Below, in pieces: positions 306 through 56,496 of a stretch of DNA of 64,000 nt (the stretch's first letter is position 1; every line of letters starts with the position of its first letter). Below the pieces are notes generated by a model. It was not told the origin of the DNA. It saw only the letters and a list, made by a program, of their open reading frames with translations, and made no database searches. This DNA is from an uncultured Gammaproteobacteria bacterium (lineage in GTDB: Bacteria > Pseudomonadota > Gammaproteobacteria > Arenicellales > JAANXG01): positions 8,915 through 72,914 of the forward strand of contig CAMYMN010000015.1 of NCBI GenBank assembly GCA_947259395.1, given 5' to 3'. A program made the translations under genes and the position numbers.

Positions 306-389
306 AACGCTTTGTCTCCTACGTGAAAAGCGGCGCATTTTACCGGTTAAACAGTAGCAAGTCTCGATTGAGTTTCATTCGTGAACGGC

Positions 390-2576
390 TCAGGCGTTGA
401 GCACCGCCAACACACGCTCGGGGGTGAACGGCATGTGATACAGGCGCTTGCCCGTGAGGGCGTGAAACGCATTGGCGACCGCCGCACTGATGAATGGATT
501 ACCGATCTCGCCGATGCCCGTCGGGTGCGTGTCGCGTTCGAGGAACTCGACGTGGATCTCCTCCGGCGCCTCCGACATCCGTAACAGCGGGTAGTCATGG
601 AAATTGGATTGCTCTACCTTACCGTCTTTGATCGTGACACGTTCCTTCAACACACTCGACAATCCGTACACGATGCCGCTCTCGACGTTGCGCCGCGCCA
701 TGTCCGGTTGCACGATGGTGCCGCCGTCGATCACGGCCCACACCTTGTGAACGCGGAGCTTGCCGGTTTGGCGGTCGAGGGAAATCTCCACCACCCCGGC
801 GCCGAGCGAGCCGGAACGTTCGCTGACCGACAGCCCGAGCGCGCGGTCTGGTAGTCTTCTGGCCCGCCAGTCGCACAGCGTCTCGACTGCAGCGAACACA
901 TCTTGAGCCTTGGGCGTCAGCGCCATGCGCTGGTGGCGAAAGGTAAATGGGTCCATGCCTTCGGCTGCCGCCATCTCGTCGACCATCCCCTCGATGGCAA
1001 ACAGGTTGAATGGGTGCGCCACTGCGCGCCAGTGTTTCAGGCGGATGCCGTGGGCGGTACCGCGCAATTCGATGCGTTGGTTGGGAACGCGATAGTACTT
1101 GTCGAGATTGATGCCCGAATACAATAGCCGCCCGCCGTCGCCCACCACGCAGTGGCGCCAGCCGGCGATCTTGCCGCGTTGGTCCAGCGCGGCCTCGACC
1201 CGCTGAAAGCACTGCGGGCGGAACATCCCGTAGGCGAGGTCTTCTTCGCGGGTCCAGATCATCTTCACCGGGCGTTTGACGGCGCGTGCGATCAGCGCCG
1301 CTTCGACGGTGTAGTCGTTGATCGACCGGCGGCCAAACCCACCGCCCATGTAATGCTGGTGGTGTATCACCTGGCTCGGTTCGAAGCCGAGTGCCCGGGC
1401 AATTAATTGGCGCGAACGACCCGGCGCCTGGGTACCTTCCCAGATCTCCACTTGGTTGCCAGCGGCATTGAAGCGGGCGACGGCATTGAGCGGTTCCATC
1501 TGCGCGTGATAGCCGAAATCGCTCTTGAAGCTGGCTTGATATATCTTGGCCGCGTTCGCAAATGCAGTGTCGATGTCGCCGGTCTCGCCGACGGTTGTGT
1601 TGTGGGCGACCTCGTCCGCAGCAATTCGCGGATAGTTGGCGTCCAGTTCCGGTGGTGAATCGAAGCCCTCGGCGAGCACCCCCTTGGCCCAGGTGACCGT
1701 GAGTGCGTTGCGCGCCTTGAGCGCGTGCTCGAAGGTGTCGGCGACGACAGCAACGCCGCGCTCCAGCTTGACGATGTTGATGACGCCCCTCATCTTGCGG
1801 ACGGCGTCCTCGTTCCAGCGCACGGGTGCGGCGAGTTGTACTGGCGAGTGTACGGTGGTGGCGTAAACCATGCCGGGCAGCCGGACGTCGATCGCAAATT
1901 TGGCCGCGCCGTTGACCTTGTCCGGGATGTCGCGGCGCGGTACCGGTTTGCCGATGAGGCGGAACTTGCTTGGGTCTTTGAAATCGGCCGCGGGCACCTC
2001 GGGCATCGTGGCCGGCGGCTCGGCGAACATGGCCACCTCGCCATAGCTCATGCGCCGGCCGGAGGCACGGTGGACCACGACGCTGGGCTCGGTGGTCAGC
2101 TCGGCGGGATCGACGCGCCACTTCTTGGCGGCGGCCGCGAGCAACACCTTACGCACCTGGGCGCCGGCTCGGCGCATTCCGTCGTAGTACATCATCACCG
2201 CCCGGCTGCCGACGATGGCCATGCTGTGGGACAGGCTCTCGCCGCGCCGTCGCGCGTAGCCATAGATCTTGGGGTTCGCCGGCGCCCATTCGAGCACCAC
2301 CTGGTTCCAGTCGGCGTCGAGCTCTTCGGCGAGCACCACCGGCACCCCGGTCATCGAGCCCTGGCCCATCTCCGCACCGGGGGTGAGAATGGTAATCGTA
2401 TTATCTGCTGCTATGCGCACCCAAGCGCCGATCTCGTAACCGGCGGCCTTGGCCTGCACCGCGGACATCAACAGCATGCCGCTCGGCGCGAACGCGACCG
2501 CAAAGGTGAGGCGCGCGGTGCCGGCGACAAATTCGCGGCGGGTGATCTTCGAGGTGGACGTGTCGATGTCGGTCAT
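390..2576 (-). CDS. molybdopterin-binding large subunit of an aldehyde oxidase/xanthine dehydrogenase-family hydroxylase (IorB-like), Tat-exported
   Basis: 728-aa ORF. N-terminal twin-arginine motif (TRREFVAG) followed by a hydrophobic region ending AKA. Length and overall sequence are typical of IorB/membrane-bound aldehyde dehydrogenase large subunits. ATGA start/stop overlap with the upstream 2Fe-2S subunit gene at 2573-2576. Confidence 0.85.
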   Translation of the reverse strand: MTDIDTSTSKITRREFVAGTARLTFAVAFAPSGMLLMSAVQAKAAGYEIGAWVRIAADNTITILTPGAEMGQGSMTGVPVVLAEELDADWNQVVLEWAPANPKIYGYARRRGESLSHSMAIVGSRAVMMYYDGMRRAGAQVRKVLLAAAAKKWRVDPAELTTEPSVVVHRASGRRMSYGEVAMFAEPPATMPEVPAADFKDPSKFRLIGKPVPRRDIPDKVNGAAKFAIDVRLPGMVYATTVHSPVQLAAPVRWNEDAVRKMRGVINIVKLERGVAVVADTFEHALKARNALTVTWAKGVLAEGFDSPPELDANYPRIAADEVAHNTTVGETGDIDTAFANAAKIYQASFKSDFGYHAQMEPLNAVARFNAAGNQVEIWEGTQAPGRSRQLIARALGFEPSQVIHHQHYMGGGFGRRSINDYTVEAALIARAVKRPVKMIWTREEDLAYGMFRPQCFQRVEAALDQRGKIAGWRHCVVGDGGRLLYSGINLDKYYRVPNQRIELRGTAHGIRLKHWRAVAHPFNLFAIEGMVDEMAAAEGMDPFTFRHQRMALTPKAQDVFAAVETLCDWRARRLPDRALGLSVSERSGSLGAGVVEISLDRQTGKLRVHKVWAVIDGGTIVQPDMARRNVESGIVYGLSSVLKERVTIKDGKVEQSNFHDYPLLRMSEAPEEIHVEFLERDTHPTGIGEIGNPFISAAVANAFHALTGKRLYHMPFTPERVLAVLNA

Positions 2577-3031
2577 GAACTTTGCTCACTCGCGGCGCGC
2601 TGGATGGCGGCAATGATCCGCGTGTAGGTGCCGCAGCGGCACAGTACCGCGTCCATGTGGGCGACGATCTCGTCGCGTGAAGGATTCGGGTTTTGCTCGA
2701 GCAGTTCCGCTGCCTGCATGATCTGCCCCGACTGACAGTACCCGCATTGTGCGACCTGTTCGGCGACCCAGGCCTTTTGCAACCGATGGTTGGAATCTGG
2801 AGACAGGCCTTCGATGGTCGTCACCGACGTGCCTTCGACGTTAGTCAAGCGTGTCATACAGGACTTGATTGCCTTGCCGTTGACATGCACGGTGCACGCG
2901 CCGCAATGCCCGGCACCGCAACCGAATTTGGTTCCGGTGAGCTTGAGATGATCCCGGATTGCCCACAGCAGTGGCGTGTCCGGCTCGGCACTCACCGATA
3001 CCGGTTTGCCATTGATCTTGAATGCAACCAT
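2573..3031 (-). CDS. [2Fe-2S]-binding small subunit of the Mo-hydroxylase (IorA-like)
   Basis: 152 aa with both cluster signatures: FGCGAGHCGACTV, and CGYCQSG ... LCRCGTY. Strong SD (AAGGAGGA) lies 3 nt upstream of ATG 3031. Confidence 0.9.
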   Translation of the reverse strand: MVAFKINGKPVSVSAEPDTPLLWAIRDHLKLTGTKFGCGAGHCGACTVHVNGKAIKSCMTRLTNVEGTSVTTIEGLSPDSNHRLQKAWVAEQVAQCGYCQSGQIMQAAELLEQNPNPSRDEIVAHMDAVLCRCGTYTRIIAAIQRAASEQSS

Positions 3032-3053
3032 GCGTCCTCCTTACCGCGGTGAC

Positions 3054-3089
3054 GGAGACATTCTACGTGTAAAAAAACCAGAATGTCCT
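3054..3089. promoter_or_regulatory. dyad cassette A (GGAGACATTCTAC ... CAGAATGTCCT); minus strand reads AGGACA-N18-TAGAAT upstream of the hydroxylase operon
   Basis: Read directly. Arms lie at 3054-3066 and 3079-3089. The minus-strand -35-like hexamer is the complement of 3084-3089 and the -10-like TAGAAT is the complement of 3060-3065, with an 18-nt spacer. The TAGAAT ends 28 nt before ATG 3031. Confidence 0.45.
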
Positions 3090-3104
3090 ATTTTGTGTTT
3101 TTTG

Positions 3105-3881
3105 CTACTTGGTCCTTTGCGAAAGCCAGTCGGCCACCGTCTGCACCAGGGGTTCTTCGAAACCGTCAAAGAAATGATCGGCGCCGGGAATCGTCACCTG
3201 CGCGTAATCGCGGTTGCCGCCCGCCTTTGCCGCCGCGGCGCGTTCGCCCGCTGTGTCGACGACGGTCTTCAAATCGTTCTCACCGTACACGTCGAGTACC
3301 GGCAGGCGGATTTTCTCGAGCGCATCGAGGCTGTTGATCTGTGGCACTTGCTTGTTGACGCCCATGCCCACCCCGACGAAGCCCTTGATCGCCGCGTCGC
3401 CGCCGGTGGCAAGAAAATGCCGCGCCATACCGCTGCCAAGGCTATGGGTGACTAGGAAGATCGGGTCAGCACCCTGTTCCTTGAGCGCTGCAATGCCGGC
3501 ACGGACGCGGCCGGGCACTTCGTCGAGCAGCGGAATGTATTCCTGGGCCTGCGCCTCATTGGGCAGGATAGGCATCTGTAACGACAGCGTGGTCCAGCCG
3601 CGTTCCGCAAGTTGTACACGTAGCGGGTACACCACCTGTGGCCAATTCGGGTGGACGCCGATACCGTGCATGACGATGACTCCGCCTAGAGTGTCGCCCT
3701 GCGCCGGCGTCAAGATGGACAGAAATTTCTGACCGTCGGCCTTTAACCATACCGCATCCCCGTCAATGAGTTCGTCGACGATCTGGTCCGCCCAGCGTTT
3801 TTCTTTGGCTAGATCCGAGGCCAGGCCGGCGGTGGCGATGAGTATCAGTATGCCGGCCATCAGAATATGCGGTGTTTTCAT
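3105..3881 (-). CDS. exported alpha/beta-fold hydrolase
   Basis: 258 aa. Signal peptide MKTPHILMAGILILIATAGLA. Nucleophile-elbow-like VTHSLGSG and alpha/beta hydrolase-like layout (VIVMHGIG ... HSLG ... ADHFF). Confidence 0.75.
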   Translation of the reverse strand: MKTPHILMAGILILIATAGLASDLAKEKRWADQIVDELIDGDAVWLKADGQKFLSILTPAQGDTLGGVIVMHGIGVHPNWPQVVYPLRVQLAERGWTTLSLQMPILPNEAQAQEYIPLLDEVPGRVRAGIAALKEQGADPIFLVTHSLGSGMARHFLATGGDAAIKGFVGVGMGVNKQVPQINSLDALEKIRLPVLDVYGENDLKTVVDTAGERAAAAKAGGNRDYAQVTIPGADHFFDGFEEPLVQTVADWLSQRTK

Positions 3882-3905
3882 TAGTTTCTTCTCTGAGAGG
3901 TAAGT

Positions 3906-3943
3906 GGGAGATATTCTACGTTTTTAAAAACTCGCATGTCCCC
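3906..3943. promoter_or_regulatory. dyad cassette B (GGGAGATATTCTACGTTTTT / AAAAACTCGCATGTCCCC); minus strand reads GGGACA-N18-TAGAAT upstream of the alpha/beta hydrolase gene
   Basis: Read directly. The -35-like hexamer is the complement of 3937-3942 and TAGAAT is the complement of 3913-3918, with an 18-nt spacer. The TAGAAT ends 31 nt before ATG 3881. The element abuts the stop codon (3944-3946) of the upstream gene. Confidence 0.45.
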
Positions 3944-4660
3944 TTAATTTTTTACCAGCGCTTGAATGGCGGCGAACCAATGGTCGGCGATCTTTATGTT
4001 GCCGGCATCGTTCGGATGGGTGCCGTCGTAAGTATCCTGCTCGGCGTCAAATCCGGTGAATTGATCGACCAGCACGACCCGTGATACCGGGGTGTCCATA
4101 GTTGTCGCCAAACCTGAGAGCGATTGGTTGAATTGCTTGATGCGTTGGGTCACGCGCTCATGGTCCACGGGAATAATAGCCGCCAACAGAATGTGGACTC
4201 TGTGATTGTGGTGGCGTAGACGATCGATGATGTCTGCGATCTCCTGTGCGGTGTCGTCGATGTCCTGGCCGACGCCGATGTCGTTGGTTCCCAAATGCAC
4301 GAGTACGAGGTCAGGCTTTGCCCGTGCCGCCCACGTATCGATGTGCGTGAGCACATGATCTGCGCGCCAGCCCCAGTGACCTTCATGGTCAGGGTCGAAA
4401 TCTTCGGCATCTGACTCCCCACCATAACCACGCTTCATGCTACCGACGAAGTCTGCCTCGATGCCGGCCCGCTTTAGCGCCGACCATAACGGCCGCCGGT
4501 AGCTATCGCGATAGCCTTGCGTGATCGAGTCGCCCAACGGCATGATCCGCAGCGACGTTTGTTGAGCCCAAGCAACGCCAGTATCAACGAGCAGCACGCA
4601 ACCCAGTGAAAACACTACCGTTGCGTGTAAGGCATGCTTGTGAACACGTGCTCGAATCAA
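3944..4660 (-). CDS. exported SGNH/GDSL-family hydrolase (lipase/esterase-like)
   Basis: SGNH blocks are present: PLGDSITQGY, LVHLGTNDIG and DGTHPN. The ORF-track start (4774) would read through the 41-bp palindrome and overlap the divergent gene. The in-frame TTG at 4660 gives a classical signal peptide (M)IRARVHKHALHATVVFSLGCVLLVDTGVAWA. The start remains uncertain because the SD is weak. Confidence 0.75.
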   Translation of the reverse strand: MIRARVHKHALHATVVFSLGCVLLVDTGVAWAQQTSLRIMPLGDSITQGYRDSYRRPLWSALKRAGIEADFVGSMKRGYGGESDAEDFDPDHEGHWGWRADHVLTHIDTWAARAKPDLVLVHLGTNDIGVGQDIDDTAQEIADIIDRLRHHNHRVHILLAAIIPVDHERVTQRIKQFNQSLSGLATTMDTPVSRVVLVDQFTGFDAEQDTYDGTHPNDAGNIKIADHWFAAIQALVKN

Positions 4661-4684
4661 TTGATATTGCCCGCAGACCAGGAA

Positions 4685-4725
4685 AAGAGGACATTCTACT
4701 TTTATCAAAAGTAGAATGTCCTCTT
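4685..4725. promoter_or_regulatory. dyad cassette C: 41-bp perfect palindrome (19-bp arms, 3-nt centre) in a divergent intergenic gap
   Basis: AAGAGGACATTCTACTTTT-atc-AAAAGTAGAATGTCCTCTT, checked base by base. Both strands read AGGACA-N18-TAGAAT (plus strand 4688-4693 and 4712-4717). Confidence 0.5.
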
Positions 4726-4745
4726 CTCGGTCCGAGGAGCCGTCA

Positions 4746-5744
4746 ATGACCGTCAATATCGCCATGTTGGGCACCGGTAGTATTGCCGATGACGCCCTCG
4801 CCCCCGCGTTGAAGCGGGTCGCGGGCGCGAATTTGTGGAGTGTACTGAGCCGCGGCCGCGACCGCGCGCGGGCGTTCGCACGGCGTCACGGTGCGGCGGC
4901 CCCGGCCCCCGCCCATGATTCGCTCGAGACACTCCTGGCCGATCCGGATCTCGACGCGGTCATCATCGCCACCCCGGATTACCTGCATGCCACACAAGCC
5001 GTCGCCGCCGCCGGCGCGGGCAAGCATGTGCTCACCGAAAAGCCGATGGCGACCGGCGTCGAGGAGGGTGAGGCCATGGTGCGGGCCTGTGACGATGCCG
5101 GGGTCAAGCTCGCAGTCGGCTACCATCTTCGCTGGCATGCCGGTCATCGCAAGATGCTGACGCTGATACGGGCCGGCGGCGTGGGTGAGTTGCGGCACAT
5201 GCGCGCCCAGTGGACGTTTCAGGCACCCGACGCCGGCAACTGGCGCGCGCGGCGCGACACCGCGAGTTGGTGGAGCTTGTCCGGCGTCGGTACCCATTGT
5301 TTAGACCTCATCCGTTGGGTGATGGTGCCCGTGTGCGGCGAGGTCGTCTCGCTTGCGAGCACCATCAGCCGCGACGTGTGGAGCAGCCCGAATGACGAGA
5401 CTGCGGTAGTTTCCCTGCGCTTCGCGTCGGGTGCCACCGCCGAATTCTGCTCTTCGGTGTTGATCACGGCGCCCAGCCGTGCCGAGGTCTACGGCAGCGA
5501 CGGTTACATCCGTTGCGAAGATACGCTCACCCGCCGCGGTGCGGGGGCGATCGACACCCACCAGGGTATCTTGGAATTCGACGTGGCCGATCCCTACGCC
5601 GGTGAGATCCGCGACTTCGTAGCGGCTATCGAGGACCATCGGAAACCGGAGGTCGATGGCCGCGAAGGGCTGCGTAACGTTTCGTTACTCGTACAAGCGG
5701 TGGCATCGGGTGGGGCTAGATTCGACGCGCAGCAAGTTCCGTAA
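4746..5744 (+). CDS. Gfo/Idh/MocA-family NAD(P)-dependent oxidoreductase
   Basis: N-terminal Rossmann motif MTVNIAMLGTGSIA, and the EKP motif (VLTEKPMA) typical of the family. SD GAGGAG lies 6 nt upstream of ATG 4746. The ORF-track start 4716 lies inside the palindrome. Confidence 0.85.
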   Translation: MTVNIAMLGTGSIADDALAPALKRVAGANLWSVLSRGRDRARAFARRHGAAAPAPAHDSLETLLADPDLDAVIIATPDYLHATQAVAAAGAGKHVLTEKPMATGVEEGEAMVRACDDAGVKLAVGYHLRWHAGHRKMLTLIRAGGVGELRHMRAQWTFQAPDAGNWRARRDTASWWSLSGVGTHCLDLIRWVMVPVCGEVVSLASTISRDVWSSPNDETAVVSLRFASGATAEFCSSVLITAPSRAEVYGSDGYIRCEDTLTRRGAGAIDTHQGILEFDVADPYAGEIRDFVAAIEDHRKPEVDGREGLRNVSLLVQAVASGGARFDAQQVP

Positions 5745-5892
5745 ATATTTCACAATTTCTGTCCTGCACGTTTAACTGTCATCGAGCGGGCCAACGGGCA
5801 ATGTAGTACTCGCTCAGCGGATTGCACGCGATGATCGTTCCCACACGCACGACCCGCAAGCACTGAGACGAAAAACAAGATAGGAGAGCGAC

Positions 5893-6108
5893 ATGTTTGA
5901 CAACCTGGTACGCGTGTACGTTGCCGTTGGACTGATAGTGTTCGGTCTGAGGGCCGTTTTCTACGAGTTGGGTATCGCCCCATGGCTGGTCATGCTCAGT
6001 TTGGCGGTGGCTCTGATCGTGTGGGTTAGCGTCCGTCATGGGCGTGACGCCGTGAACGGATTACAGACCCGAATTGGTGTGTATCCTGTAAGGCGGCGAG
6101 CGGTCTGA
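5893..6108 (+). CDS. small hypothetical membrane protein (71 aa, two predicted TM helices)
   Basis: SD AGGAGA lies 5 nt upstream of ATG 5893. There are two hydrophobic stretches (VYVAVGLIVFGLRAVF and WLVMLSLAVALIVWVSV). It is followed by a good intrinsic terminator at 6137-6181. No recognised family. Confidence 0.45.
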   Translation: MFDNLVRVYVAVGLIVFGLRAVFYELGIAPWLVMLSLAVALIVWVSVRHGRDAVNGLQTRIGVYPVRRRAV

Positions 6109-6136
6109 CCGGTGTATTGCTCCTTGGTGCATTAAG

Positions 6137-6181
6137 GGGTCGGTGACGCTTCAGATATCTCGATCACCGGCCCATTTTTTT
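6137..6181 (+). terminator. rho-independent terminator candidate
   Basis: GGGTCGGTGA ... TCACCGGCCC forms a 10-bp stem with one G-U pair, followed by A plus a run of 7 T (6175-6181). Confidence 0.55.
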
Positions 6182-6332
6182 GTTCCTATAAATTCAACTG
6201 ATCCTTGCGCTACTGTGGGTCCTGTGGGCTAGCTACTACATACGTTTTTAGGTTCGTGACCGCGCGGGACGTCCATCGCGAAGCTGGTGAGCTGAGGCCT
6301 GACTTCGATTCGTTTTTGTAACGGTTTGAGCT

Positions 6333-6974
6333 CTACAAGAATGTGATATAGGGAAGCAGCATGCGGCTGATGGCGAAGACATTGTGGAATATCGGCAGAC
6401 CCATGATACTCAGCACCACCAGCGCCATGAGCGCCATATTACCGTAGCGGTTATTGAAATAACGGTACTGCTGGGCCATCCGGCGGGGCAAGAAATAGGG
6501 CAGGATGTAATGGCCGTCCAGGGCGCCCAGGGGAATCAAGTTGAATATCATCAATAACAGATTGATCTGCGCGAGAAAGACGAAAAAGAACCGCGGCCCC
6601 GGTTCCGCAAGACCGCTGTACCCCATGTGTAACCCCAAAACATAGATATTGATGGTGACCACCGCAACGACCAGGTTCATCGCCGGCCCGGCCGCAGATA
6701 CCAGCAAATCCGCCCACACCGATGTGAAGTTTCGCGGATTGGTGGGCACTGGTTTCGCGTAACCAAAACCGATCAGCATAACCATCAAAAGACCCATTGG
6801 ATCGATGTGCGCGATCGGATTAATAGTCAGGCGCCCCGCCTGCTCTGCGGTATCGTCACCGAATCGTTTGGCCACATAGGCATGCCCAAATTCGTGAAAC
6901 GACAACGAGATCACGAGAGCGATCAGGATCAACAGAAACAAGGCGAATTGGCCTTGGTGGAGAAGTTGGATCAT
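6333..6974 (-). CDS. site-2 protease (M50)-family integral membrane metalloprotease
   Basis: 213 aa, polytopic. HExxH motif (FHEFGHAYVA) sits in the first TM region. Second motif region NLIPLGALDGHYIL. Confidence 0.8.
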   Translation of the reverse strand: MIQLLHQGQFALFLLILIALVISLSFHEFGHAYVAKRFGDDTAEQAGRLTINPIAHIDPMGLLMVMLIGFGYAKPVPTNPRNFTSVWADLLVSAAGPAMNLVVAVVTINIYVLGLHMGYSGLAEPGPRFFFVFLAQINLLLMIFNLIPLGALDGHYILPYFLPRRMAQQYRYFNNRYGNMALMALVVLSIMGLPIFHNVFAISRMLLPYITFL

Positions 6975-7142
6975 TCAATTCGACTGCTTGTGGTTGTCAG
7001 GGGTAATTATCGGTGAATTGCCACCGATTCGAAAACCGTGATAATTGTGGTGGCAACTACCATGGGGTTGGCGCGCAATTTCGGCTAATATTAGCGAATG
7101 TTGCTGTTAGGCGTAGTTGTCGTCTGATCCCTATTTTCGAAG

Positions 7143-8027
7143 GTGTATACCATGTGGCACTTCACACGATATTGGATATTCGGCTGGCTGGTGTATGCGA
7201 GTTTTTTAACTCAGGTGCAAGCCGATGCGCTGAGCTTTGAACTCGCGGCCGCCAGCGCGGAGACCTATGGACTGCCGCACGACATCGTATTGTCGCCCGA
7301 CGGCAAGGCGCTTTACGTGGCCGACAACGCCAACGATCGCATCGTCGTATTGGACCCCGAGACATTGAAGGAACTCGGCGCGTTTGCACAGGACGAAGTC
7401 GCCGAGCCCCATGACGTTGCGTTTGACGCCACCGGGCGTTTGCTGGTCGCCGATACCGGCAACAGCCGCATCGCCATTTTCGCGGTCGATGGTGTCGGCG
7501 GACGGCTTGTCGGGTCGCTTGAGGGGCGTATTCGGCGCCCAGAGGGTGTCGCCGTGCACCCCGACGGCCGGGTGTTTGCGACGGGCGCGGCCTCGGGCAA
7601 TCTCGTGGTGTACCGCGACGGCCAGGTGGTCGGCGAAGTCGGCGGGTTTTCTTCTCCCCATGATGTGGCTTTTGATTCAAGCGGCGGCGTTTGGGTCGCC
7701 GATGCCGCCAATGATCGGTTGGTGCGCCTGAACGATGCGCTGCAGGTAAAGACGATTTTGTCCGGTCCTGCTTATGATTTCAGTGGGCCGCGGTACCTGG
7801 ACTTCGATCCCGCAGGGCGTATGTACGTGGCCGACAAATACACACATCGAATTAAAGTAATTGCCCCCGACGGTAAATTGATTCAAGTGTTGGGCGGTCC
7901 CCGTTCAGGGAAGGGTGAAGGCGTTTTTGATCGGCCGGAAGGTGTTGCAGTCCGAGGCGACGATATCTGGTTTTCCGACACCTATAACAACCGTATCGTT
8001 CGTTATAAAGTGACGGGTATGCGGTAA
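7143..8027 (+). CDS. exported NHL-repeat beta-propeller protein
   Basis: Signal-like N-terminus ending QVQADA. Repeated NHL units are present (e.g. PHDVAFDATGRLLVADTGNSRIAIF, PHDVAFDSSGGVWVADAANDRLVRL, PRYLDFDPAGRMYVADKYTHRIKVI, PEGVAVRGDDIWFSDTYNNRIVRY). Confidence 0.8.
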   Translation: MYTMWHFTRYWIFGWLVYASFLTQVQADALSFELAAASAETYGLPHDIVLSPDGKALYVADNANDRIVVLDPETLKELGAFAQDEVAEPHDVAFDATGRLLVADTGNSRIAIFAVDGVGGRLVGSLEGRIRRPEGVAVHPDGRVFATGAASGNLVVYRDGQVVGEVGGFSSPHDVAFDSSGGVWVADAANDRLVRLNDALQVKTILSGPAYDFSGPRYLDFDPAGRMYVADKYTHRIKVIAPDGKLIQVLGGPRSGKGEGVFDRPEGVAVRGDDIWFSDTYNNRIVRYKVTGMR

Positions 8028-8052
8028 TAAAGAAACATTTGTCCCAACAAAA

Positions 8053-8106
8053 GGAGACATCCTACTTTTTAAGTAACAAGTAACAGCTAAAAAAGTAGTA
8101 GTCCCC
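8053..8106. repeat. cassette-related long imperfect palindrome between convergent genes; probable bidirectional terminator
   Basis: GGAGACATCCTACTTTTT (8053-8070) pairs with AAAAAAGTAGTAGTCCCC (8089-8106). The loop contains the tandem AAGTAACA-AGTAACA. T-runs follow the stem on both strands. The left arm matches cassettes A-C (GGAGACAT[T/C]CTAC). Confidence 0.5.
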
Positions 8107-8114
8107 TGTTTTGG

Positions 8115-8519
8115 TCACACGGCTTGCGTGACCGTATCAGTCTGCCGGTGAAAATATTGATCGTAGATCAGGAGATGGTCACGGAAGGATTCGGCTAATT
8201 TCCTAGCTACCTTCGCGTTGTCGTGCGGTGCCCTACTGCGATAATAAAACATCGCCATCGTAATCTCGTCCAACAGGCGCTGATGATCTGCTTGATGCTC
8301 TTCGTATCCGTCGTAGCATCGCGCCCTCATGATTGCCTCCTCATAGGCGAAGTGCTTGGTATAGCTCGCGTATAAGTTGCCGAGTAGCTCGATCATGGTC
8401 GACTCGCGCTCGCCGAGCCGCTGGATCAGCTCAACTTGTTTACGGTGCTCGGCGTCCAGCTTCCTGATCCCTCCGTGGAACGTCGTTTCGTAGTCCAATA
8501 TCGTCATTATCAACTCCAC
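8115..8519 (-). CDS. hemerythrin-like metal-binding protein (bacteriohemerythrin family)
   Basis: 134 aa. N-terminal ...LDAEHRKQVELIQRL, then H/E/D-rich helices (HFAYEEAIM, HQADHQRLLDEI, FRDHLLIYDQYF) matching the hemerythrin His/Glu/Asp ligand pattern. Confidence 0.65.
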   Translation of the reverse strand: MELIMTILDYETTFHGGIRKLDAEHRKQVELIQRLGERESTMIELLGNLYASYTKHFAYEEAIMRARCYDGYEEHQADHQRLLDEITMAMFYYRSRAPHDNAKVARKLAESFRDHLLIYDQYFHRQTDTVTQAV

Positions 8520-8879
8520 TAAAGTTCAGTGTTTCCCTAGAAGTCGGCGTGCGACATCCGTCATCTTCGGTCGCATCAATCGATCGTCTTCGTAACCGGG
8601 TCGTCACGCCGTTCGCTCCAGCCTCCAGTAGTGGAATCTCATTCTTAAACGCTATTAATTATTGAAGTTAGACGCTATTTCTGAACTTGTCCAGTAAATA
8701 ATGACGCTAACTAGCTGTCTTTTCTGAGAAAAGACAGTATTTCCCTCGTCGGGGTTGCCGGTTCCTGAATTTAGCGGCACGTCCGCGGTGTCGCCGCGGC
8801 GGCCACGGTGCAGTAACCGGCACGCGGGCGTGCCGCTGAAGATCCCGCGCGGTGTCCGATGATGGCTCCGGTTGACGCC

Positions 8880-9518
8880 TCAAACGCGCGGCGGGAAGCG
8901 CTGTTGGAGCCCCCGCACCTGTGCCGCGCTGAGCAGCCGCGTATCGGCGCCGCGTAATAATAGAAATAGCCGGGCGGTCTCTTCCAGCTCTTCGATGGCG
9001 TATACGGCGTCGTTGAGGGTCGCGCCGGCAACCACCGGGCCGTGATTGGCCAACAGTACCGCGTGATGGCTGCCGGCGATCTCACCGACTGCCTTTGCCA
9101 GATCCGCATCACCCGGCGGGAAATAAGGGACCAGGGGGAGTCGTCCGATGCGCATCACATAGTAGGCGGTGATGGGCGGCAACACATTGTCATGATCGAC
9201 GTCTTCGAGACAACTGACCGCGACCGAATACGTGGAATGCAGGTGGACTACGGCGCCGGCCTTGGGGCGCTGTTGATACATTGCAAGGTGCAGGAACGAT
9301 TCCTTGGTTGGCCGGTCGCCGCCAACCCAGTCACCGTTGTCATCCAACTTGGCAATCCGTTCGGGGTCGATCTCCCCCATCGACGTCCCGGTAGGCGTCA
9401 TCAGCCAACCGCCGTCGATGCGGACACTGATATTGCCGGTGGATCCAAACGTGAGCCCGCGCGCAAAAAGCGAGCGTCCCAGAATGGCGATGCGGTCGCG
9501 GTTTAGTGTTTCACTCAT
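8880..9518 (-). CDS. otnC: class II aldolase/adducin-family protein, 3-oxo-tetronate 4-phosphate decarboxylase (OtnC/YgbL)-like
   Basis: From internal ATG 9518: MSETLNRDRIAILGRSLFARGLTFGSTGNISVR ... HLHSTYSVA ... LLANHGPVVAG (class II aldolase His ligands). ATGA overlap with the upstream kinase gene at 9515-9518. The ORF-track start 9617 overlaps that gene. Confidence 0.7.
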   Translation of the reverse strand: MSETLNRDRIAILGRSLFARGLTFGSTGNISVRIDGGWLMTPTGTSMGEIDPERIAKLDDNGDWVGGDRPTKESFLHLAMYQQRPKAGAVVHLHSTYSVAVSCLEDVDHDNVLPPITAYYVMRIGRLPLVPYFPPGDADLAKAVGEIAGSHHAVLLANHGPVVAGATLNDAVYAIEELEETARLFLLLRGADTRLLSAAQVRGLQQRFPPRV

Positions 9519-10789
9519 GGCAGCATACCCATTGCTTTGGTAAAGAAATCCTCGCCGCCGAAGTTTCCGGATTTGAGCGCGAGGGCGATCCGCGGCTCGC
9601 CGATGGTCTCGGTCCATGGCACGCCGGGATCGATCTCGGCGCCGATACGCAAGCTCTGCACGCTCAGCGCCGACACCACCGTTCCGGATGTTTCACCGCC
9701 GGCGACAATCAGCCGACGTACACCGCTCGCCACTAGTGCGTGGGCGAGGCGGCCAAAGGCATCCTCGATCATCTCGCCCGCCCGCCCGCGTCCGTACTGC
9801 TGCTGGATCGTCGCGACCTCGTCGGGCGCGGCGGACGTGTAAACGATAACCGGGGTGTGATTGTTGTGCCCATTCGCCCACGTGAGCGTCTCTTCTACCA
9901 CCGGGTCGCCGCTGGCGATGCGGTGTACATCGAGTTTTCGATGTGGCCAGGTCCGCTTGGCAAAGGCGATCTGCCCACGGGTGGCTTGTGAGCAGCTTCC
10001 AGCGAGAACTACTGCGCGGCCTGCCGCTCGCGGTACATCGGATTCCGCCGGTGGGCCGAGCAGGCCCCGGCGGCGAAAATTCTCAGGTAATCCGAGGGCA
10101 ACGCCGGAGCCGCCGGTGACCAGACGGTGGTCCGAGGCCGCCGCGCCGATGGTCGCGAGGTCGTTATCCGTGAGCGCATCCACGACGCCATAGGACATAC
10201 CTGCATTGCGCAGCGCCGCGAACGCCGACGCCGTAGCTCCAATTCCGGCGGCGACCGTTGCGTGGGGCACGAGACCGACGCGGCGTTGGGTCTGCGCACC
10301 CATCAATCTGATCAGGCTGGAGTCTCGCATCGGTGTCAACGGATGATGTTTCATAGATGATTCTGCAAGTAATTGATCGCCGACAAAAAGGTGGCCCTGG
10401 TAGATGGTGCGGGCATTGGTGGGAAAGGCAGGACACACCACCGTGAACTCGGCCCCAAGGGCATCCAGCAACGCGTCGGCGACGGGACCGATATTGCCGT
10501 GCGCGGTGGAGTCGAACGTCGAGCAGTACTTGAAGAAAAACTGTTGCGCTCCAAGTTCACGCAACCAGTTCAACGCCGCGAGGGAGGCGCCGATCGCATC
10601 CTCGACCGGTGCGGTTCTCGATTTCAGCGCCACCACCACAGCTTCGGCACCACCAAGGTCAACATCCGCGGGGGGCACGCCGATGGTCTGCACTGAACGC
10701 ATGCCTTGTCTCACCAAGGTGTTGGCAAGATCGGTCGCTCCGGTGAAATCATCGGCAATGCAGCCCAATAGAACGCTCATGCGAACCAT
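9515..10789 (-). CDS. otnK: four-carbon acid-sugar kinase family protein (DUF1537; OtnK/YgbK-like 3-oxo-tetronate kinase)
   Basis: About 420 aa with the characteristic N-terminus LGCIADDFTGATDLAN. Two-domain size is typical of DUF1537 kinases. Alternative start ATG 10780. Confidence 0.75.
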   Translation of the reverse strand: MVRMSVLLGCIADDFTGATDLANTLVRQGMRSVQTIGVPPADVDLGGAEAVVVALKSRTAPVEDAIGASLAALNWLRELGAQQFFFKYCSTFDSTAHGNIGPVADALLDALGAEFTVVCPAFPTNARTIYQGHLFVGDQLLAESSMKHHPLTPMRDSSLIRLMGAQTQRRVGLVPHATVAAGIGATASAFAALRNAGMSYGVVDALTDNDLATIGAAASDHRLVTGGSGVALGLPENFRRRGLLGPPAESDVPRAAGRAVVLAGSCSQATRGQIAFAKRTWPHRKLDVHRIASGDPVVEETLTWANGHNNHTPVIVYTSAAPDEVATIQQQYGRGRAGEMIEDAFGRLAHALVASGVRRLIVAGGETSGTVVSALSVQSLRIGAEIDPGVPWTETIGEPRIALALKSGNFGGEDFFTKAMGMLP

Positions 10790-29198: not shown

Positions 29199-32100
29199 TC
29201 ATTCAATCATCGACAGCAAATCCGGGTTGCCGCCCACGGCTGCGATGTTGATGGACACTGTTCTTTCCGTGCATAAGTGTCGTAGATAGTTGGGACCACC
29301 AGCCTTGGGACCGGTGCCGGACAATCCCTCGCCGCCGAACGGTTGTACGCCAACCACAGCGCCGATCATATTGCGGTTGACGTAGACGTTGCCGACCCGG
29401 ACGCGTCGGGTAATGTACTCAATGGTCTCCTCGATGCGGCTGTGAATACCCAACGTGAGTCCGTAACCGGTAGCGTTGATCGCCTCGATGACGTTGTCGA
29501 GTTTATTCGCGGCGAAACGAATCACGTGCAAAATAGGACCAAACACTTCGTTATCGAGTAAGGACAGTGATTCGATTTCAAACATATGAGGTGGAAAATA
29601 CGTGCCGCGATCAGTCGCTGCGGACAATTCGCAACGATAAATCAAGGTTCCGTTTGCGGACAAAAATGTTACGTGTTTTTGCAACGCTATTTGTGCGTCC
29701 TCGTCGATAACCGGCCCAACATCGGTGCTCAACATTGCCGGATCTCCGATGGTCAGTTCGGCCATTGCTCCGCGCAGCATTTCGAGGGTACGCGACGCCA
29801 CGTCATCCTGGATAAACAATACCCGTAGCGCCGAACAACGTTGGCCGGCGCTGTTGAACGCTGACTGTATCGCATCCGCTACCACCTGTTCGGCCAACGC
29901 CGAGCTGTCGATGATCATTGCGTTTTGACCGCCGGTTTCGGCAATCATCGGCACGATGGGGCCTGCTTTTTTGGCGAGGGAACGCTGGATGGCCTTTGCC
30001 GTGTCCGTGGCGCCGGTAAACAAGACACCCGCGATGTCGGGATCGGCCACTAACCGGGCGCCAATAGCACCGTCACCGGGCAGCAACTGCAGCACGTCGT
30101 TCGGAATGCCGGCTCGATGCAGCAATCCTAGTGCATGAGAAGCGATCAAGGGTGTTTGCTCCGCGGGTTTGGCGATCACGCTGTTGCCGGCGGCGAGGGC
30201 GGCGGTGATCTGGCCAAGGAAAATCGCGAGCGGGAAATTCCACGGGCTGATACAGGCGAATACGCCGCGGCCGTGGAGGCTCAACTGGTTGGATTCCCCA
30301 CTTGGCCCGATCAGCGACTGTGGTGACTGCAGTTGATGGCGGGCCAGCGACGCGTAATAACGGCAGTAATCCACCGCCTCGCGCACCTCCGTCAGCGCAT
30401 CGGGTAGCGTCTTTCCGGCCTCGCGCACGCACAGGGTCATCAGCGCTGCTCGCTGCGCTTCCAAGATGTCCGCGGCGTTGTCCAAGTGTGCGGCGCGTTC
30501 ATTGGGACTCGTCGCCTGCCACGCCCAGAAGCCGCGATCTGCGACACTGACCGCACCATCGACATGGTTCGTGTCAGCCCATGCCACGGTCCCTATTTGA
30601 AGAGACTGGTCTGCCGGCGAATAAACGCCATGTATCGGCTCGCCCAAGGTCTGTCCTGCGACCATCGGCACCGTGGTCCACGTCTGCCCGTCTGCCTTTT
30701 CCATGGCAGCCTTGAGCTGCTCGAGTTCTACGGGATCGGACAGATTGAGGCCCTGAGAATTGACTCGCGACGTGCCGTAGAGGTTCACCGGCAACGGAAT
30801 TAGTGGATGCGGTGCATACTCGTTATCCCCGGCGATGTTGATGGGATCCGCAGCCACCGCCTCTACCGGCACCTCACGGTGAACGATGCGATTTACAAAT
30901 GATGTGTTGGCCCCATTCTCCAGCAGCCGGCGCACGAGATAAGGCAGCAGCTCGGCATGTCCGCCTACCGGGGCATAGATTCGGCAACGCAACTGATCCC
31001 GTTGTTGCAAAAATAAGTCATAAAGCCCGCGACCCATACCGTGTAGACGTTGAAACTCAAAGTCTTTACCGTTTGCCAGCGCCAACACCGAGCACATCGT
31101 ATGCGCATTATGGGTGGCAAATTGCGGATACAGCAGAGGTGCCGACTGCAACAACCTTTGGCTACAGGAAAGATATGAAATGTCGGTGTGTGACTTGCGG
31201 GTGAATACCGGGTAGCCTCCCAAGCCGTCTATCTGGGCCTGTTTGATCTCATTGTCCCAGTAAGCACCCTTGACCAACCGTACCGGAATTTGGCGCCGGT
31301 AGCGATCCGCTAGTCCCACGAGCCAGTTCAGCGTGGGCAGGGCGCGTTTCTGATAGGCCTGCACCGCCATGCCCAGGCCCTCCCAATCGGACAGCGCTGG
31401 ATCGCTGTAAAGTGCACGGAAGACGTCCAGTGACAACTCCAGACGGTCCGCCTCTTCGGCGTCTATGGTTACCAACAGTTCGAACTGTTTCGCCAGCCGC
31501 GCCAGTTCCAGCAGTGGCGGTGTCAGTTCCTTCAACACACGGTCCCGCTGGGCATATTCATAGCGGGGATGCAGGGCAGACAGCTTGATCGAGATCCCCG
31601 GGGCCAGCACTCCTGAACCGCACCGGTGTTTGCCGATGGCGGTAATGGCATGGGCGTAGGCATCGAAGAACCGGTGCGCATCGGGGGCGGTCATCGCCGC
31701 CTCGCCCAACATATCGTAAGAGTATAAGTAACGCTTTCTATCGGCGTGGTTACTACGCTCCAATGCCTGCTCTATGGTCTCACCGAGTACAAATTGCCGT
31801 CCAATGATTTCCATTGCCTGGGTGACGGCTACTCGCACCACCGGCTCGCCACTGCGTGCGGCAAGTCTCTTTAGTGCCGCGCCAAGATCGTTTCGCGTAT
31901 CCGGAGCCAGATTGATTAACCTCCCGGTCAGCATCAGCCCCCAGGTGGAGGCATTCACGAGTATCGATTCGCTCTTCCCGAGGTGCTCGTCCCAGTGTCC
32001 GGTGCTGAGCTTCTCACGAATCAGCCGATCGGCGGTTTCGGCGTCCGGGATACGCAGCAGCGCTTCCGCCAGGCACATCAACACGACGCCTTCTTCGCTG

Positions 32101-32348
32101 GAAAGGTCGTACTCCTGCAAGAAGGCGTCCAGGCCCTTTTGTGCGCCAGGGGTCTCGCGCAACGCCCGTACCACGGCACAGGTGTGAGCGAATATGTCGC
32201 CCCGGGTCTTCGCATCGAGGCCGGCTTGTTCCACTAGCGCTTGGGTCCAACTTGTTTCGTCCGCGAGATAGGCCTCACGAATCGCGCGGCGCAATGGGTC
32301 GGGTGGCGCAAATGGATGCTCGCTGATCATAACCTCGAGATTATGCAT
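29199..32348 (-). CDS. putA: bifunctional proline dehydrogenase / L-glutamate gamma-semialdehyde dehydrogenase PutA (short form without RHH DNA-binding domain)
   Basis: 1049 aa. N-terminal PRODH half and C-terminal ALDH half, with ETGGQNAMIID and the catalytic Cys context GQRCSALR. Confidence 0.9.
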   Translation of the reverse strand: MHNLEVMISEHPFAPPDPLRRAIREAYLADETSWTQALVEQAGLDAKTRGDIFAHTCAVVRALRETPGAQKGLDAFLQEYDLSSEEGVVLMCLAEALLRIPDAETADRLIREKLSTGHWDEHLGKSESILVNASTWGLMLTGRLINLAPDTRNDLGAALKRLAARSGEPVVRVAVTQAMEIIGRQFVLGETIEQALERSNHADRKRYLYSYDMLGEAAMTAPDAHRFFDAYAHAITAIGKHRCGSGVLAPGISIKLSALHPRYEYAQRDRVLKELTPPLLELARLAKQFELLVTIDAEEADRLELSLDVFRALYSDPALSDWEGLGMAVQAYQKRALPTLNWLVGLADRYRRQIPVRLVKGAYWDNEIKQAQIDGLGGYPVFTRKSHTDISYLSCSQRLLQSAPLLYPQFATHNAHTMCSVLALANGKDFEFQRLHGMGRGLYDLFLQQRDQLRCRIYAPVGGHAELLPYLVRRLLENGANTSFVNRIVHREVPVEAVAADPINIAGDNEYAPHPLIPLPVNLYGTSRVNSQGLNLSDPVELEQLKAAMEKADGQTWTTVPMVAGQTLGEPIHGVYSPADQSLQIGTVAWADTNHVDGAVSVADRGFWAWQATSPNERAAHLDNAADILEAQRAALMTLCVREAGKTLPDALTEVREAVDYCRYYASLARHQLQSPQSLIGPSGESNQLSLHGRGVFACISPWNFPLAIFLGQITAALAAGNSVIAKPAEQTPLIASHALGLLHRAGIPNDVLQLLPGDGAIGARLVADPDIAGVLFTGATDTAKAIQRSLAKKAGPIVPMIAETGGQNAMIIDSSALAEQVVADAIQSAFNSAGQRCSALRVLFIQDDVASRTLEMLRGAMAELTIGDPAMLSTDVGPVIDEDAQIALQKHVTFLSANGTLIYRCELSAATDRGTYFPPHMFEIESLSLLDNEVFGPILHVIRFAANKLDNVIEAINATGYGLTLGIHSRIEETIEYITRRVRVGNVYVNRNMIGAVVGVQPFGGEGLSGTGPKAGGPNYLRHLCTERTVSINIAAVGGNPDLLSMIE

Positions 32349-34221: not shown

Positions 34222-40289
<6,068 letters not shown>

Positions 40290-45104: not shown

Positions 45105-45142
45105 AGTATTTGGTCCCAGTGGTTGAGTCTTCTTTATTCGAC

Positions 45143-45655
45143 TTATTTTACGATCGCAATAGTGGAATCCCGCTCTACCCAATTACCGCCCGGGCCTTGA
45201 ACGATTTCTTTGATATCCAATTTTTCATCGGCAACTGTCATAATTTGTCCAAAATTCTGACCGAGATAGTTTCCTTCGCCGGCTCGATGAATGGTTCCAT
45301 CGGGTGCGTGGATCACCGCCCACGATGCGTCACCGCGACTCAGTGTACCGACCATTCTCAAAGAATCTAACGGGTACTGCTCCAACGGTTCTTTTCGCCG
45401 ATCGAGATCTGGACTCAAACCGCTGCCAGCTGCCATTGGTTTGCGCTTAACCAAGTTTCCGCGAGAAAAAGGATCCGTCAAGTTCGTTGCTGTGTATGAG
45501 TAGCTCTCATACGGCCGGATACGAGGCAGTGGCTCGACACGCGGTTTTCGATCCTTATGAGCCTCTTTGACAAATCGATGCAGGTCGCGCATGTCGCCCT
45601 CGGTGCACCCGATAAGCAACATGGAAACAAACAAAACTGTGATGCAGCGAGCCAT
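45143..45655 (-). CDS. pilP: type IV pilus assembly lipoprotein PilP
   Basis: 170 aa. Lipobox MLLIGC. Sits in the pilMNOPQ operon position. Confidence 0.8.
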   Translation of the reverse strand: MARCITVLFVSMLLIGCTEGDMRDLHRFVKEAHKDRKPRVEPLPRIRPYESYSYTATNLTDPFSRGNLVKRKPMAAGSGLSPDLDRRKEPLEQYPLDSLRMVGTLSRGDASWAVIHAPDGTIHRAGEGNYLGQNFGQIMTVADEKLDIKEIVQGPGGNWVERDSTIAIVK

Positions 45656-45661
45656 ATCGGA

Positions 45662-46300
45662 TTATCTTCTTCGACGCCGTTTTTTACTCTTAATAGCTGC
45701 CTGTTTCCGCCGCTGGATCTGATCTTCGTCCAAGTAATGATAAGTCTTGGTCGTGGCCGACATCGTCAGTTTGTCTGTGCCCTTGATCGGCGTCAGGTTC
45801 AGATCACCGATGGTCACGATGCGTGGCAGCGAAGCCAGATCGCTGACAAATTCACCGAGTTGATGATAACTTCCGCTGACCGCCAGACTTATGGGCATTT
45901 CCGCGTAAAAGTCTTCTTGCCGGGTTTTTTTCGGCTTAAATGTTTGAAACTGTAATCCACGCCCGAGTCCTGCCTGGGTTATATCGATCAACAGCTCCGG
46001 CACCTCCGTTTTGTCGGGCAATTGCTTGAGCATCACGCCGAAGGTATCTTCGATCTCCTTCATTTGTTGACGGTAGGCGCCAAGGTTGATCGCCAGCGCC
46101 TTTTTCTTAAGGTAAGAATCTTTGAGCTGTGCCTCTTGGCGCTGAGCTTTCTGTAGATCGACATACTGGTCCTTAATAATAAACCAATATCCCGCCGCCA
46201 GTATCGCGATGCAAATCACCCCGGTGCCGGTTAGTTTCAACCACAGCGGCCAGGACCCAATGTCATTGATGTCAATTTCTTGTAAGTCGCTAAGTGCCAT
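45662..46300 (-). CDS. pilO: type IV pilus assembly protein PilO
   Basis: 212 aa. Single TM helix, coiled coil and PilO-like core. Operon position fits. The C-terminus is basic (KKRRRRR). Confidence 0.85.
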   Translation of the reverse strand: MALSDLQEIDINDIGSWPLWLKLTGTGVICIAILAAGYWFIIKDQYVDLQKAQRQEAQLKDSYLKKKALAINLGAYRQQMKEIEDTFGVMLKQLPDKTEVPELLIDITQAGLGRGLQFQTFKPKKTRQEDFYAEMPISLAVSGSYHQLGEFVSDLASLPRIVTIGDLNLTPIKGTDKLTMSATTKTYHYLDEDQIQRRKQAAIKSKKRRRRR

Positions 46301-46304
46301 TTAC

Positions 46305-53561: not shown

Positions 53562-53665
53562 GTCACGTTGGCTGGACTGGCCGCGTCTCACAACGGCAAT
53601 ATTTGGTACTGCTGAAAATCATAGACTGTTTTTACGCGTGGAGACAGAAATCCCCCGGGTATTTA

Positions 53666-56317: not shown

Positions 56318-56496
56318 GGCGGTTTTATACTTTGGGTGGTGTAATGACGGGTATCATTTTGTATTGAAACAGGCGCCTAGTGCGAGTCTAGCCGATCTAT
56401 GTGGTAACGCCAATGTAAAACGTCTTTTTATTCAGTATCATCCAGAAAAATAGTAGAATATCCATTAAGTTACAACACCTCGCGAATCATTCTTGC

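Follow-up and report, generated by a model that had tools for sequence, protein, structure and literature searches.

Five copies of a short palindromic repeat (copies A to E) lie in intergenic gaps of the window, the stretch of 64,000 nucleotides of contig CAMYMN010000015.1 analyzed here, which derives from an uncultured gammaproteobacterium assigned to Arenicellales. On balance, we favor the reading that these copies, of which E is decayed, are repeats of the repetitive extragenic palindrome/terminal inverted repeat (REP/TIR) type linked to a transposase, and that four of them, A, B, C and E, most likely took on a promoter role. A motif that had gone unrecognized in a sequence-only reading of this DNA would be explained in this way as a member of the class of repeats served by REP-associated tyrosine transposases (RAYTs).

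Repeat copies in the window

The sequence-only reading had described three near-identical, promoter-like cassettes in consecutive intergenic gaps, and direct reading of positions 2700-5100 bore out their coordinates (A, 3054-3089; B, 3906-3943; C, 4685-4725). As proposed, GGACA-N18-TAGAAT was present on the minus strand of all three cassettes and on the plus strand of C, amounting to four matches in the window compared with 0.00 expected from 100 dinucleotide shuffles. Such shuffle tests ruled out a chance origin of the cassettes. The likeness to sigma-70 hexamers also held, a consensus scan flagging all four sites at 9 of 12 positions with an 18-nt spacer. On the minus strand, TAGAAT ended 28, 31 and 32 nt before ATG 3031, ATG 3881 and TTG 4660, respectively, and the plus-strand TAGAAT of C, counted on the sequence, ended 28 nt before the oxidoreductase ATG 4746, all as originally given.

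Copy A (3054-3089, minus strand) reads AGGACA-18 nt-TAGAAT in front of the Fer2/MoCoBD operon. Its arms were only partly complementary (TTCTAC vs CCAGAA), with a hairpin at z = -2.9/-2.2. An A-rich tract GCAAAAAACACAAAAT (3090-3104, minus strand, hence a T-tract on the plus strand) lies immediately upstream of its -35-like hexamer, is retained in sister genomes and is possibly UP-element-like. Copy B (3906-3943, minus strand) reads GGGACA-18 nt-TAGAAT in front of the DUF3530 hydrolase gene and abuts the stop codon of the SGNH hydrolase gene (3944-3946); its hairpin was mostly decayed (z about -1, not significant). Copy C, which spans 4682-4728 as a near-perfect palindrome with 22-nt arms and a 3-nt center, lies between divergent genes, carries GGACA-18 nt-TAGAAT on both strands and folded strongly (-28.5/-31.8 kcal/mol, z = -8.9/-10.4).

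The three cassettes were real, but two further copies had been missed. A relaxed two-arm search of the window gave six sites against about one per shuffle; five of them were copies A-E, and the sixth, at 30232, looks like chance. Copy D (8053-8106, no strand assigned) consists of GGAGACATCCTAC, a 29-nt loop and GTAGTAGTCCCC, preceded by AAAA and followed by TGTTTT; it lies where the NHL-repeat and hemerythrin genes converge with their 3' ends (-15.6/-20.7 kcal/mol, z = -3.2/-4.1). Because its hexamers are damaged and 36 nt apart and its context is convergent, D looks like an ordinary non-promoter copy in a REP or terminator-like placement. Copy E (330-365, minus strand) is degenerate, GAGACT(TGCTAC)-...-GGTAAAATGCGCCGC, and lies one gap further along the same chain of minus-strand genes. 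Its -35-like GAGACT (plus-strand positions 360-365) and -10-like TAAAAT (337-342) are 17 nt apart, TAAAAT ends 31 nt before the ATG at 305 (minus strand), and no hairpin remains in the window (folding z > 0). It was identified as a family member because the orthologous gap of the sister contig L210 holds a clear copy, GCGGACATTCTACcttctaaaagGTAGAATGCGCCGC. All five copies are intergenic (three tandem, one divergent, one convergent), and the gaps holding copies are short (62-85 nt).

The repeat family in other genomes

The wider search for copies suggested in the sequence-only reading gave not only D and E but also family members in other genomes. An exact scan for GACATTCTAC-N4-34-GTAGAATGTC in a 596-Gb collection of public genomes, one per species, returned at least 120 loci with 127 matches listed, compared with about 17 chance matches estimated for the whole collection with equiprobable bases; these counts are minimum values, and the shares of the phyla should not be read quantitatively. 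Among the matches listed, 68 loci formed a first group, to which the window copies belong, flanked by GGG/CCC, with internal T/A tracts and with arms extended to aaaaGGGGACATTCTACtttt...aaaaGTAGAATGTCCCCtttt. Group 1 loci came from Planctomycetota, Woeseiaceae and other Gammaproteobacteria, Hydrogenedentota and one metagenome-assembled genome (MAG) labelled Rhodospirillaceae. Several copies per MAG were frequent (for example, among the matches listed, VGYL01 contributed 13 loci, and 6 loci of CAYYOX01 contained 8 copies between them). Identical loops were seen in either orientation, and changes in the palindromic inner extensions were compensated.

Family members follow the consensus (A/T-tract)GGGGACATTCTAC-loop-GTAGAATGTCCCC(A/T-tract). 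Arm spacing ranged from 4 to about 55 nt across the family, while a fixed 11-nt loop was found in the lineage of the window. The stem base GGGGACATTC was invariant, and stem pairs 10-13 occurred as compensated variants (CTAC/GTAG, CTGC/GCAG, CTGG/CCAG, CCTA/TAGG, CCTG/CAGG and CTTA/TAAG), the variant usually being common to the copies of one genome, RAYT-flanking and distant copies alike. G.U pairs made up only 0-3% of pairs 1-16 in 92 distinct hairpins. Compensated pairs together with the near absence of G.U point to a palindrome maintained at the DNA level rather than to an RNA structure.

By gap type, group 1 copies among the matches listed were 16 convergent, 25 tandem and 3 divergent, and many began 4-25 nt past a stop codon. 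These placement counts rest on crude gene calls from open reading frames (ORFs), and 20 'genic' calls are probably spurious ORFs. REPs show the same mainly convergent and tandem distribution (Di Nocera et al., PMC3733652). Genes flanking the copies in other genomes were mutually unrelated, and about half of the gammaproteobacterial copies had no T-tract. The suggestion that the cassettes are a promoter-carrying palindromic repeat that had spread locally was near the evidence, except on two points: the family is not local, occurring in many genomes of at least two phyla, and promoter geometry is no family property, given the variable arm spacing and the position of most copies elsewhere, 3' of genes. 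A promoter role is favored by the sister genomes for A, B, C and E (see below), but D is not promoter-like.

A literature search found no report of this sequence; the sole bacterial match to the arm sequences was an unrelated Thermotoga promoter table. Rfam covariance models gave no match to the copies, only sub-threshold miRNA-hairpin matches on palindrome C. An analogy with DNA uptake sequences, inverted pairs of which serve as terminators (inverted DUS/USS pairs), was discarded, single arms not being over-represented in the window (14 vs 12.4 expected, with up to 2 mismatches). Variant arms GGGACAGTATAC, GGGACAGTTTAC and GGGACAGTCTAC were seen beside genes in the same genomes (L209 2845, L210 4899, L042 2016-2115, L012 1060, L211 7359) and may form a second sub-family. 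Arrays of another short palindrome, GGGGACAGTCCCC (TGC) GGGGACAGTCCC, were present in L096 (695-847) and L046 (1944-2027); this palindrome may be the hairpin stem base closed on itself, a related repeat type.

Association with a RAYT-type transposase

A Y1/HUH transposase surfaced among the genes neighboring group 1 copies, where it was found twice, with a copy on each side. The motif search gave the transposase gene with flanking hairpins in three loci from two phyla (the gammaproteobacterial L046 and L096, and L086 from Planctomycetaceae). The protein matched Pfam Y1_Tnp at 57 bits and NCBIfam NF047646, the REP-associated tyrosine transposase family, at 80.5 bits (cut-off 80). It had 6291 homologues at E <= 1e-20, the named ones belonging to Woeseiaceae, Xanthomonadales, Gammaproteobacteria and Planctomycetota. 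Loci were also sampled from the protein side, which avoids ascertainment by the motif: among eight homologue contigs, L202 duplicated L201, and all seven distinct loci carried GGGGACATTC...GAATGTCCCC hairpins beside the transposase gene. Taking motif-first and protein-first loci together, a hairpin lay 30-70 nt upstream of the transposase start in 10 of 10 loci and at or over its stop codon in 9 of 10; in L205, two arms bracket the gene like TIRs.

The transposases (208-242 aa) share the motifs NHFH, WQ and RYVERNP and a conserved C-terminal tail. Identity was 55-64% between planctomycetotal and gammaproteobacterial proteins, compared with 59-81% within Gammaproteobacteria, and on these values repeat and transposase appear to travel or persist together across phyla. 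With hairpins flanking the Y1 gene in all ten loci, we infer that these are REP/TIR-type repeats and that the transposase is cognate to them. Hairpins built on the GGGGACATTC stem would provide a concrete repeat family, common to Gammaproteobacteria and Planctomycetota, for a transposase group that has been listed with only terminal inverted repeats or with no REPs.

By analogy with REP-RAYT systems, the hairpin would be recognized by the transposase in single-stranded form and copied into further intergenic positions; hairpin binding, cleavage and mobilization would parallel those of E. coli TnpA-REP and of the IS200/IS605 enzymes. Arm variants common to RAYT-flanking and distant copies lend this mobilization indirect support.

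In the six gammaproteobacterial loci with readable flanking genes (L201, L203, L204, L206, L207 and L208, around 10001-10729), the RAYT gene occupied one conserved position within an MSHA-like pilus cluster, between a large CBM96/Laminin_G protein and PilM, and a further hairpin directly followed the first pilin (N_methyl) gene in five of the six (all but L206). This constant position fits the single-copy, vertically inherited state described for RAYTs (PMC5581495). A conserved ATTAAAGATTTAGCC(C) followed the RAYT-distal hairpin in seven gammaproteobacterial loci (L046, about 7830-7845; L096, L201, L203, L204, L206 and L207).

Conservation in sister genomes

Three sister contigs (L209, L210 and L211), whose DUF3530 hydrolase was 86-90% identical to that of the window, keep the gene chain SGNH, DUF3530, Fer2/MoCoBD and hydrolase. 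The comparison of orthologous gaps that the sequence-only reading had called for showed copies A, B, C and E at the corresponding gaps, with the sense hexamers and the 17-18 nt spacing retained. Orthologues of copy A in L209 and L210 had unchanged hexamers and 18-nt spacing, copy B had orthologues in the same two contigs, and in L209 and L211 the SGNH gene was preceded by an orthologue of copy C with both arms intact. Copy D does not lend itself to this comparison, as the adjoining gene differs in L211. More distant DUF3530 homologues (47-62% identity; 80 metagenome loci, 403 kb) had neither a copy nor any other palindrome at the equivalent gaps, so the ancestor of the close clade would have acquired the repeats in these gaps.

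Fourfold-degenerate sites diverged by 24-32% in pairwise comparisons, and 59% of them were invariant across three genomes. Against this background, the hexamers of A and B together were invariant at 22 of 24 positions, compared with 24 of 36 positions in their 18-nt spacers (Fisher p = 0.03), the spacer value being close to the neutral rate; spacer length stayed at 18 nt throughout. The gene-proximal arm of copy A, GTAGAATGTCTCC, was identical in all three genomes while its distal arm drifted without compensation (TTCTGG, TGCTGG, TGCAGG), so that the hairpin is not the retained feature. In tandem gaps, the sense -10 element was intact in 9 of 9 cases and the antisense one in 1 of 9; divergent-gap copies kept both -10 elements in 4 of 4 cases (raw p = 0.007 against the tandem gaps, the copies not being independent). 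In L211, SoxYZ is inserted between the SGNH and DUF3530 genes, and the copy stays at the 5' side of DUF3530, where it is the only promoter-like site in a 140-nt region. This strand-specific conservation suggests that A, B, C and E were probably co-opted as promoters.

In the mechanism that we favor, the 11-nt A/T loop of this lineage sets GGGACA and TAGAAT 18 bp apart on both strands, in sigma-70 geometry. With start codons 28-32 nt downstream, A, B, C and E would then have been taken over as promoters of the hydrolase, hydroxylase and oxidoreductase genes, as their conservation indicates, and D, where two convergent genes end, is a plain copy without a promoter role. The sister comparison offers a small, testable case of a selfish repeat turned promoter, in which the gene-facing strand is kept and the other strand decays.

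Gene order differed between the sister genomes exactly at repeat sites (compare window 3882-4745), which suggests that the repeats mediate rearrangements. In L209, a 6.6-kb block (2619-9258) encoding a TRAP transporter (DctPQM), a phosphoenolpyruvate (PEP) mutase and a 2-hydroxyacid dehydrogenase lay between copies, bordered by a half copy next to the oxidoreductase gene and a full copy next to the SGNH gene. In L211, SoxYZ (6363-8382) was bordered by arm fragments GTGTCCCCATTTTA, found twice. Many RAYT-carrying contigs were only about 1 kb long; together with repeats at sister rearrangement junctions, this hints that metagenome assemblies may break at the repeats next to the RAYT gene.

The same core at PadR promoters

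A second group of 52 loci among the matches listed came from Acidobacteriota, Gemmatimonadota and Myxococcota and had TT/AA flanks (TTGACATTCTAC). A PadR signature was carried by 41 of these 52 listed loci, and arms TTGACATTCTAC ... GTAGAATGTCAA bracketed the promoters of TIGR03433 PadR genes (L003, L004, L006, L014, L016-L018, L021, L027, L031, L047, L083 and others), the assignment being confirmed by NCBIfam (139-155 bits, cut-off 101.8). In the cases read by eye, the left arm gave TTGACA with a -10-like hexamer 17-18 nt downstream, and the ATG within the right arm was the PadR start codon, which implies leaderless PadR transcripts. The flanks co-varied between PadR paralogues (X-core-X'). 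These features indicate that the group 2 palindrome is probably a PadR autoregulatory operator. Convergence on one core may be eased by the sigma-70-like hexamers present in both groups.

Secreted proteins of about 280 aa (MSRKxHSF..., Acidobacteriota) also start at an ATG within the same palindrome, with TTGACA-N18-TATATA upstream (L019, L022, L032, L056, L057, L069, L092, L094 and L120). NCBIfam gave no match for this protein family, and its gene may be a target of the PadR regulator. A literature search on TIGR03433/ADOP found nothing useful.

Weighing the explanations

Several observations weigh against promoter reuse of a transposase-linked repeat. The -35 hexamers agree with the consensus at only 4 of 6 positions, and 18 nt is among the longer spacers usually seen. 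Conservation is high over entire intergenic gaps (89% mean column identity), the counts are low, and the sister sequences cannot be treated as independent. Copy A might owe its asymmetry to recombination of two arm variants (CTGG and CTAC, both present elsewhere) instead of to selective decay, and C alone could drive co-transcription of the genes. The window has no RAYT gene within its 64 kb, so that the link to the transposase comes through the sequence family, from other genomes. That family is patchy, being absent around the 47-62% identical DUF3530 homologues, and the identical 10-nt core also brackets PadR promoters in Acidobacteriota. Alternatively, the copies could be inert REP/TIR remnants whose hexamers arise by accident from the A/T-rich family sequence, the gene chain being transcribed from other promoters or as one unit; we regard this as possible but unlikely. 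Family membership and the RAYT link hold either way, most family members elsewhere are outside promoter positions, the 62-85 nt gaps force any insert to about 30 nt from the next start, and at the modest divergence of the sister genomes persistence alone proves little. Inert remnants do not, however, account well for hexamers that are more conserved than the spacer and neutral sites, for the contrast between sense and antisense -10 elements in tandem gaps with both kept in divergent gaps, or for the copy retained by DUF3530 in L211 despite its separation by the divergent SoxYZ. Going beyond promoter reuse, the whole family might be a portable, symmetric, bidirectional promoter dispersed by the transposase, each arm fusing a -35-like GGGACA with the reverse complement of the -10 TAGAAT. 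We offer this idea tentatively and think it doubtful; if true, every short-loop insertion would deliver promoters both ways and the host would trim them to the needed direction. A further possibility is that the architecture, or a protein reading it, is common to the mobile repeat and the TIGR03433 PadR regulator family.

The sequence-only reading had also considered operators of a dimeric transcription factor co-regulating the enzyme cluster; the half-sites would be GGGACAT and ATGTCCC. Dyad symmetry is compatible with this, as are the outer half-sites and spacing conserved in the sister genomes, and the same 10-nt arms bracket the promoter and start of TIGR03433 PadR genes in an autoregulation-like arrangement in Acidobacteriota, Gemmatimonadota and Myxococcota. 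Against it, Pfam scans found no regulator gene near the cassettes: the statement that no transcription factor lay within tens of kb was roughly right, since none of the 30 ORFs scanned encoded a classical regulator within about 25 kb, with PutA and its DNA-binding domain at 29-32 kb and NtrY/NtrX at 60-63.5 kb. A PadR gene was near none of the 68 family loci among the matches listed, and a PadR operator was rejected for the window copies, as neither the window nor these listed loci had a PadR signature. Arm spacing that varies across the family, an inner half of one arm that decays without compensation, copies flanking the transposase gene in every locus sampled, neighbor genes unrelated to one another in other genomes and the position of D between convergent genes likewise fit an operator poorly; the regulon proposal found no support, and we consider it highly improbable. 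No more credit can be given to RNA hairpins acting as intrinsic (bidirectional) terminators or as 3'-end stabilizers of upstream transcripts, which we also deem very improbable. The family form aaaaGGGG...CCCCtttt does resemble a bidirectional terminator, many copies lie 4-25 nt past a stop codon with convergent gaps common, and D, for which a terminator reading could still apply, has a compatible layout and a stable hairpin. A and B, however, have their T-tracts on the plus strand and their genes on the minus strand, and an intrinsic terminator was rejected for both on this ground. Moreover, B and E have lost the ability to fold, the arms of A and B have changed without compensation, the family has almost no G.U pairs, the genes on either side of C diverge, and T-tracts are missing from about half of the gammaproteobacterial copies. 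A terminator scan of the window reported none of the copies.

Neighboring genes and other window content

Pfam confirmed the identities proposed for the flanking genes. On the minus strand, the operon downstream of copy A (390-3031) comprises the Fer2 gene (2573-3031) and the MoCoBD hydroxylase gene (390-2576), the DUF3530 alpha/beta hydrolase gene (3105-3881) lies between copies B and A, and the GDSL/SGNH hydrolase gene (3944-4660) follows. The start of the last is uncertain; TTG 4660 is proposed, and its AATTGAT context is conserved in L209 and L211. The GFO/IDH/MocA oxidoreductase gene (4746-5744, plus strand) is divergent from the SGNH gene across copy C.

A solitary arm, AAAAATAGTAGAATATCC, was present without a partner arm at 56450-56466, in a divergent gap upstream of the gene whose ATG is at 56497, the end of its TAGAAT being 36 nt ahead of that ATG. 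This arm could be what is left of a copy, or it could have arisen by chance. Elsewhere the window has ordinary gammaproteobacterial chromosomal content, with PutA (29199-32348), a glutamate-synthase-like pair (34222-40289), pilMNOPQ with an AMIN-domain secretin and PBP1a (42441-47953, 48110-50539), TopA (51228-53591) and NtrY/NtrX (59958-63544). The nearest named relatives of the window TopA were Arenicellales at 73-74% identity, with closer relatives at 90-93%.

Comparison with known systems

Correia elements of Neisseria are MITEs (miniature transposable elements with inverted repeats) of about 100-150 bp, with a DDE-type mechanism, TA target sites and demonstrated promoter activity. The repeat described here resembles them as a non-autonomous inverted-repeat element whose ends give outward-facing sigma-70-like promoter elements to neighboring genes; it differs in that its copies are hairpins of 35-55 bp, linked to a Y1 transposase, and their promoter activity is inferred. 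PadR-family operators are of the ATGT-N8-ACAT type. The repeat shares with them a palindrome with ACAT...ATGT, and its 10-nt arms GACATTCTAC/GTAGAATGTC are identical to those at TIGR03433 padR promoters, but its half-site order is inverted, its spacing is long and variable, and the window has no PadR gene.

Closer parallels are found in the REP/REPIN-RAYT systems (REPs and bacterial interspersed mosaic elements (BIMEs) with TnpA-REP in E. coli; REPINs in Pseudomonas), which are likewise short imperfect palindromes in many intergenic copies (PMC3733652, PMC3116915 and PMC5581495). As in those systems, most copies separate genes that converge or run in the same direction, copies stand on both sides of a single Y1/HUH gene, and a genome-specific arm variant is common to the copies within a genome. 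The classical REP hairpin bears an unpaired GTAG or CGTC tag at one end (PMC3733652), whereas the present repeat has no such tag, its GTAG lying within the stem and varying with compensation. Classical REPs are also species- or genus-specific, whereas here the core and the transposase (55-64% identity) are common to Gammaproteobacteria and Planctomycetota.

The transposase itself resembles the TIR-associated tyrosine transposases (TIRYTs) of Di Nocera et al. 2013 (PMC3733652), a group that Quentin et al. 2018 (PMC6006769) treat as equivalent to their TnpA-REP subclass 2.1. Signatures of that subclass are NH[YF]H or NHVH, W[EQ], Y..NP and a C-terminal tail, with a median length of about 238 aa, and it is listed with 'REP: no' (PMC6006769 Table 1). 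The NHFH, WQ and Y..NP motifs, the tail and the length of 208-242 aa are consistent with these signatures, a provisional assignment made by motif reading and not with the authors' models. Inverted repeats flanking TIRYT genes have the consensus GGGG[AT][CG]A[CG] (PMC3733652), with which the arms beginning GGGGACAT agree at 7 of 8 positions, the last being T instead of C/G. Unlike in TIRYTs, a flank here generally consists of a whole hairpin, equivalent to a close TIR dimer, which also recurs in many dispersed copies. Since the unpaired GTAG tag is absent and no paper reporting the sequence was found, the element is filed, on its sequence features, as a new repeat of the REP/TIR-RAYT kind rather than as a GTAG-REP.

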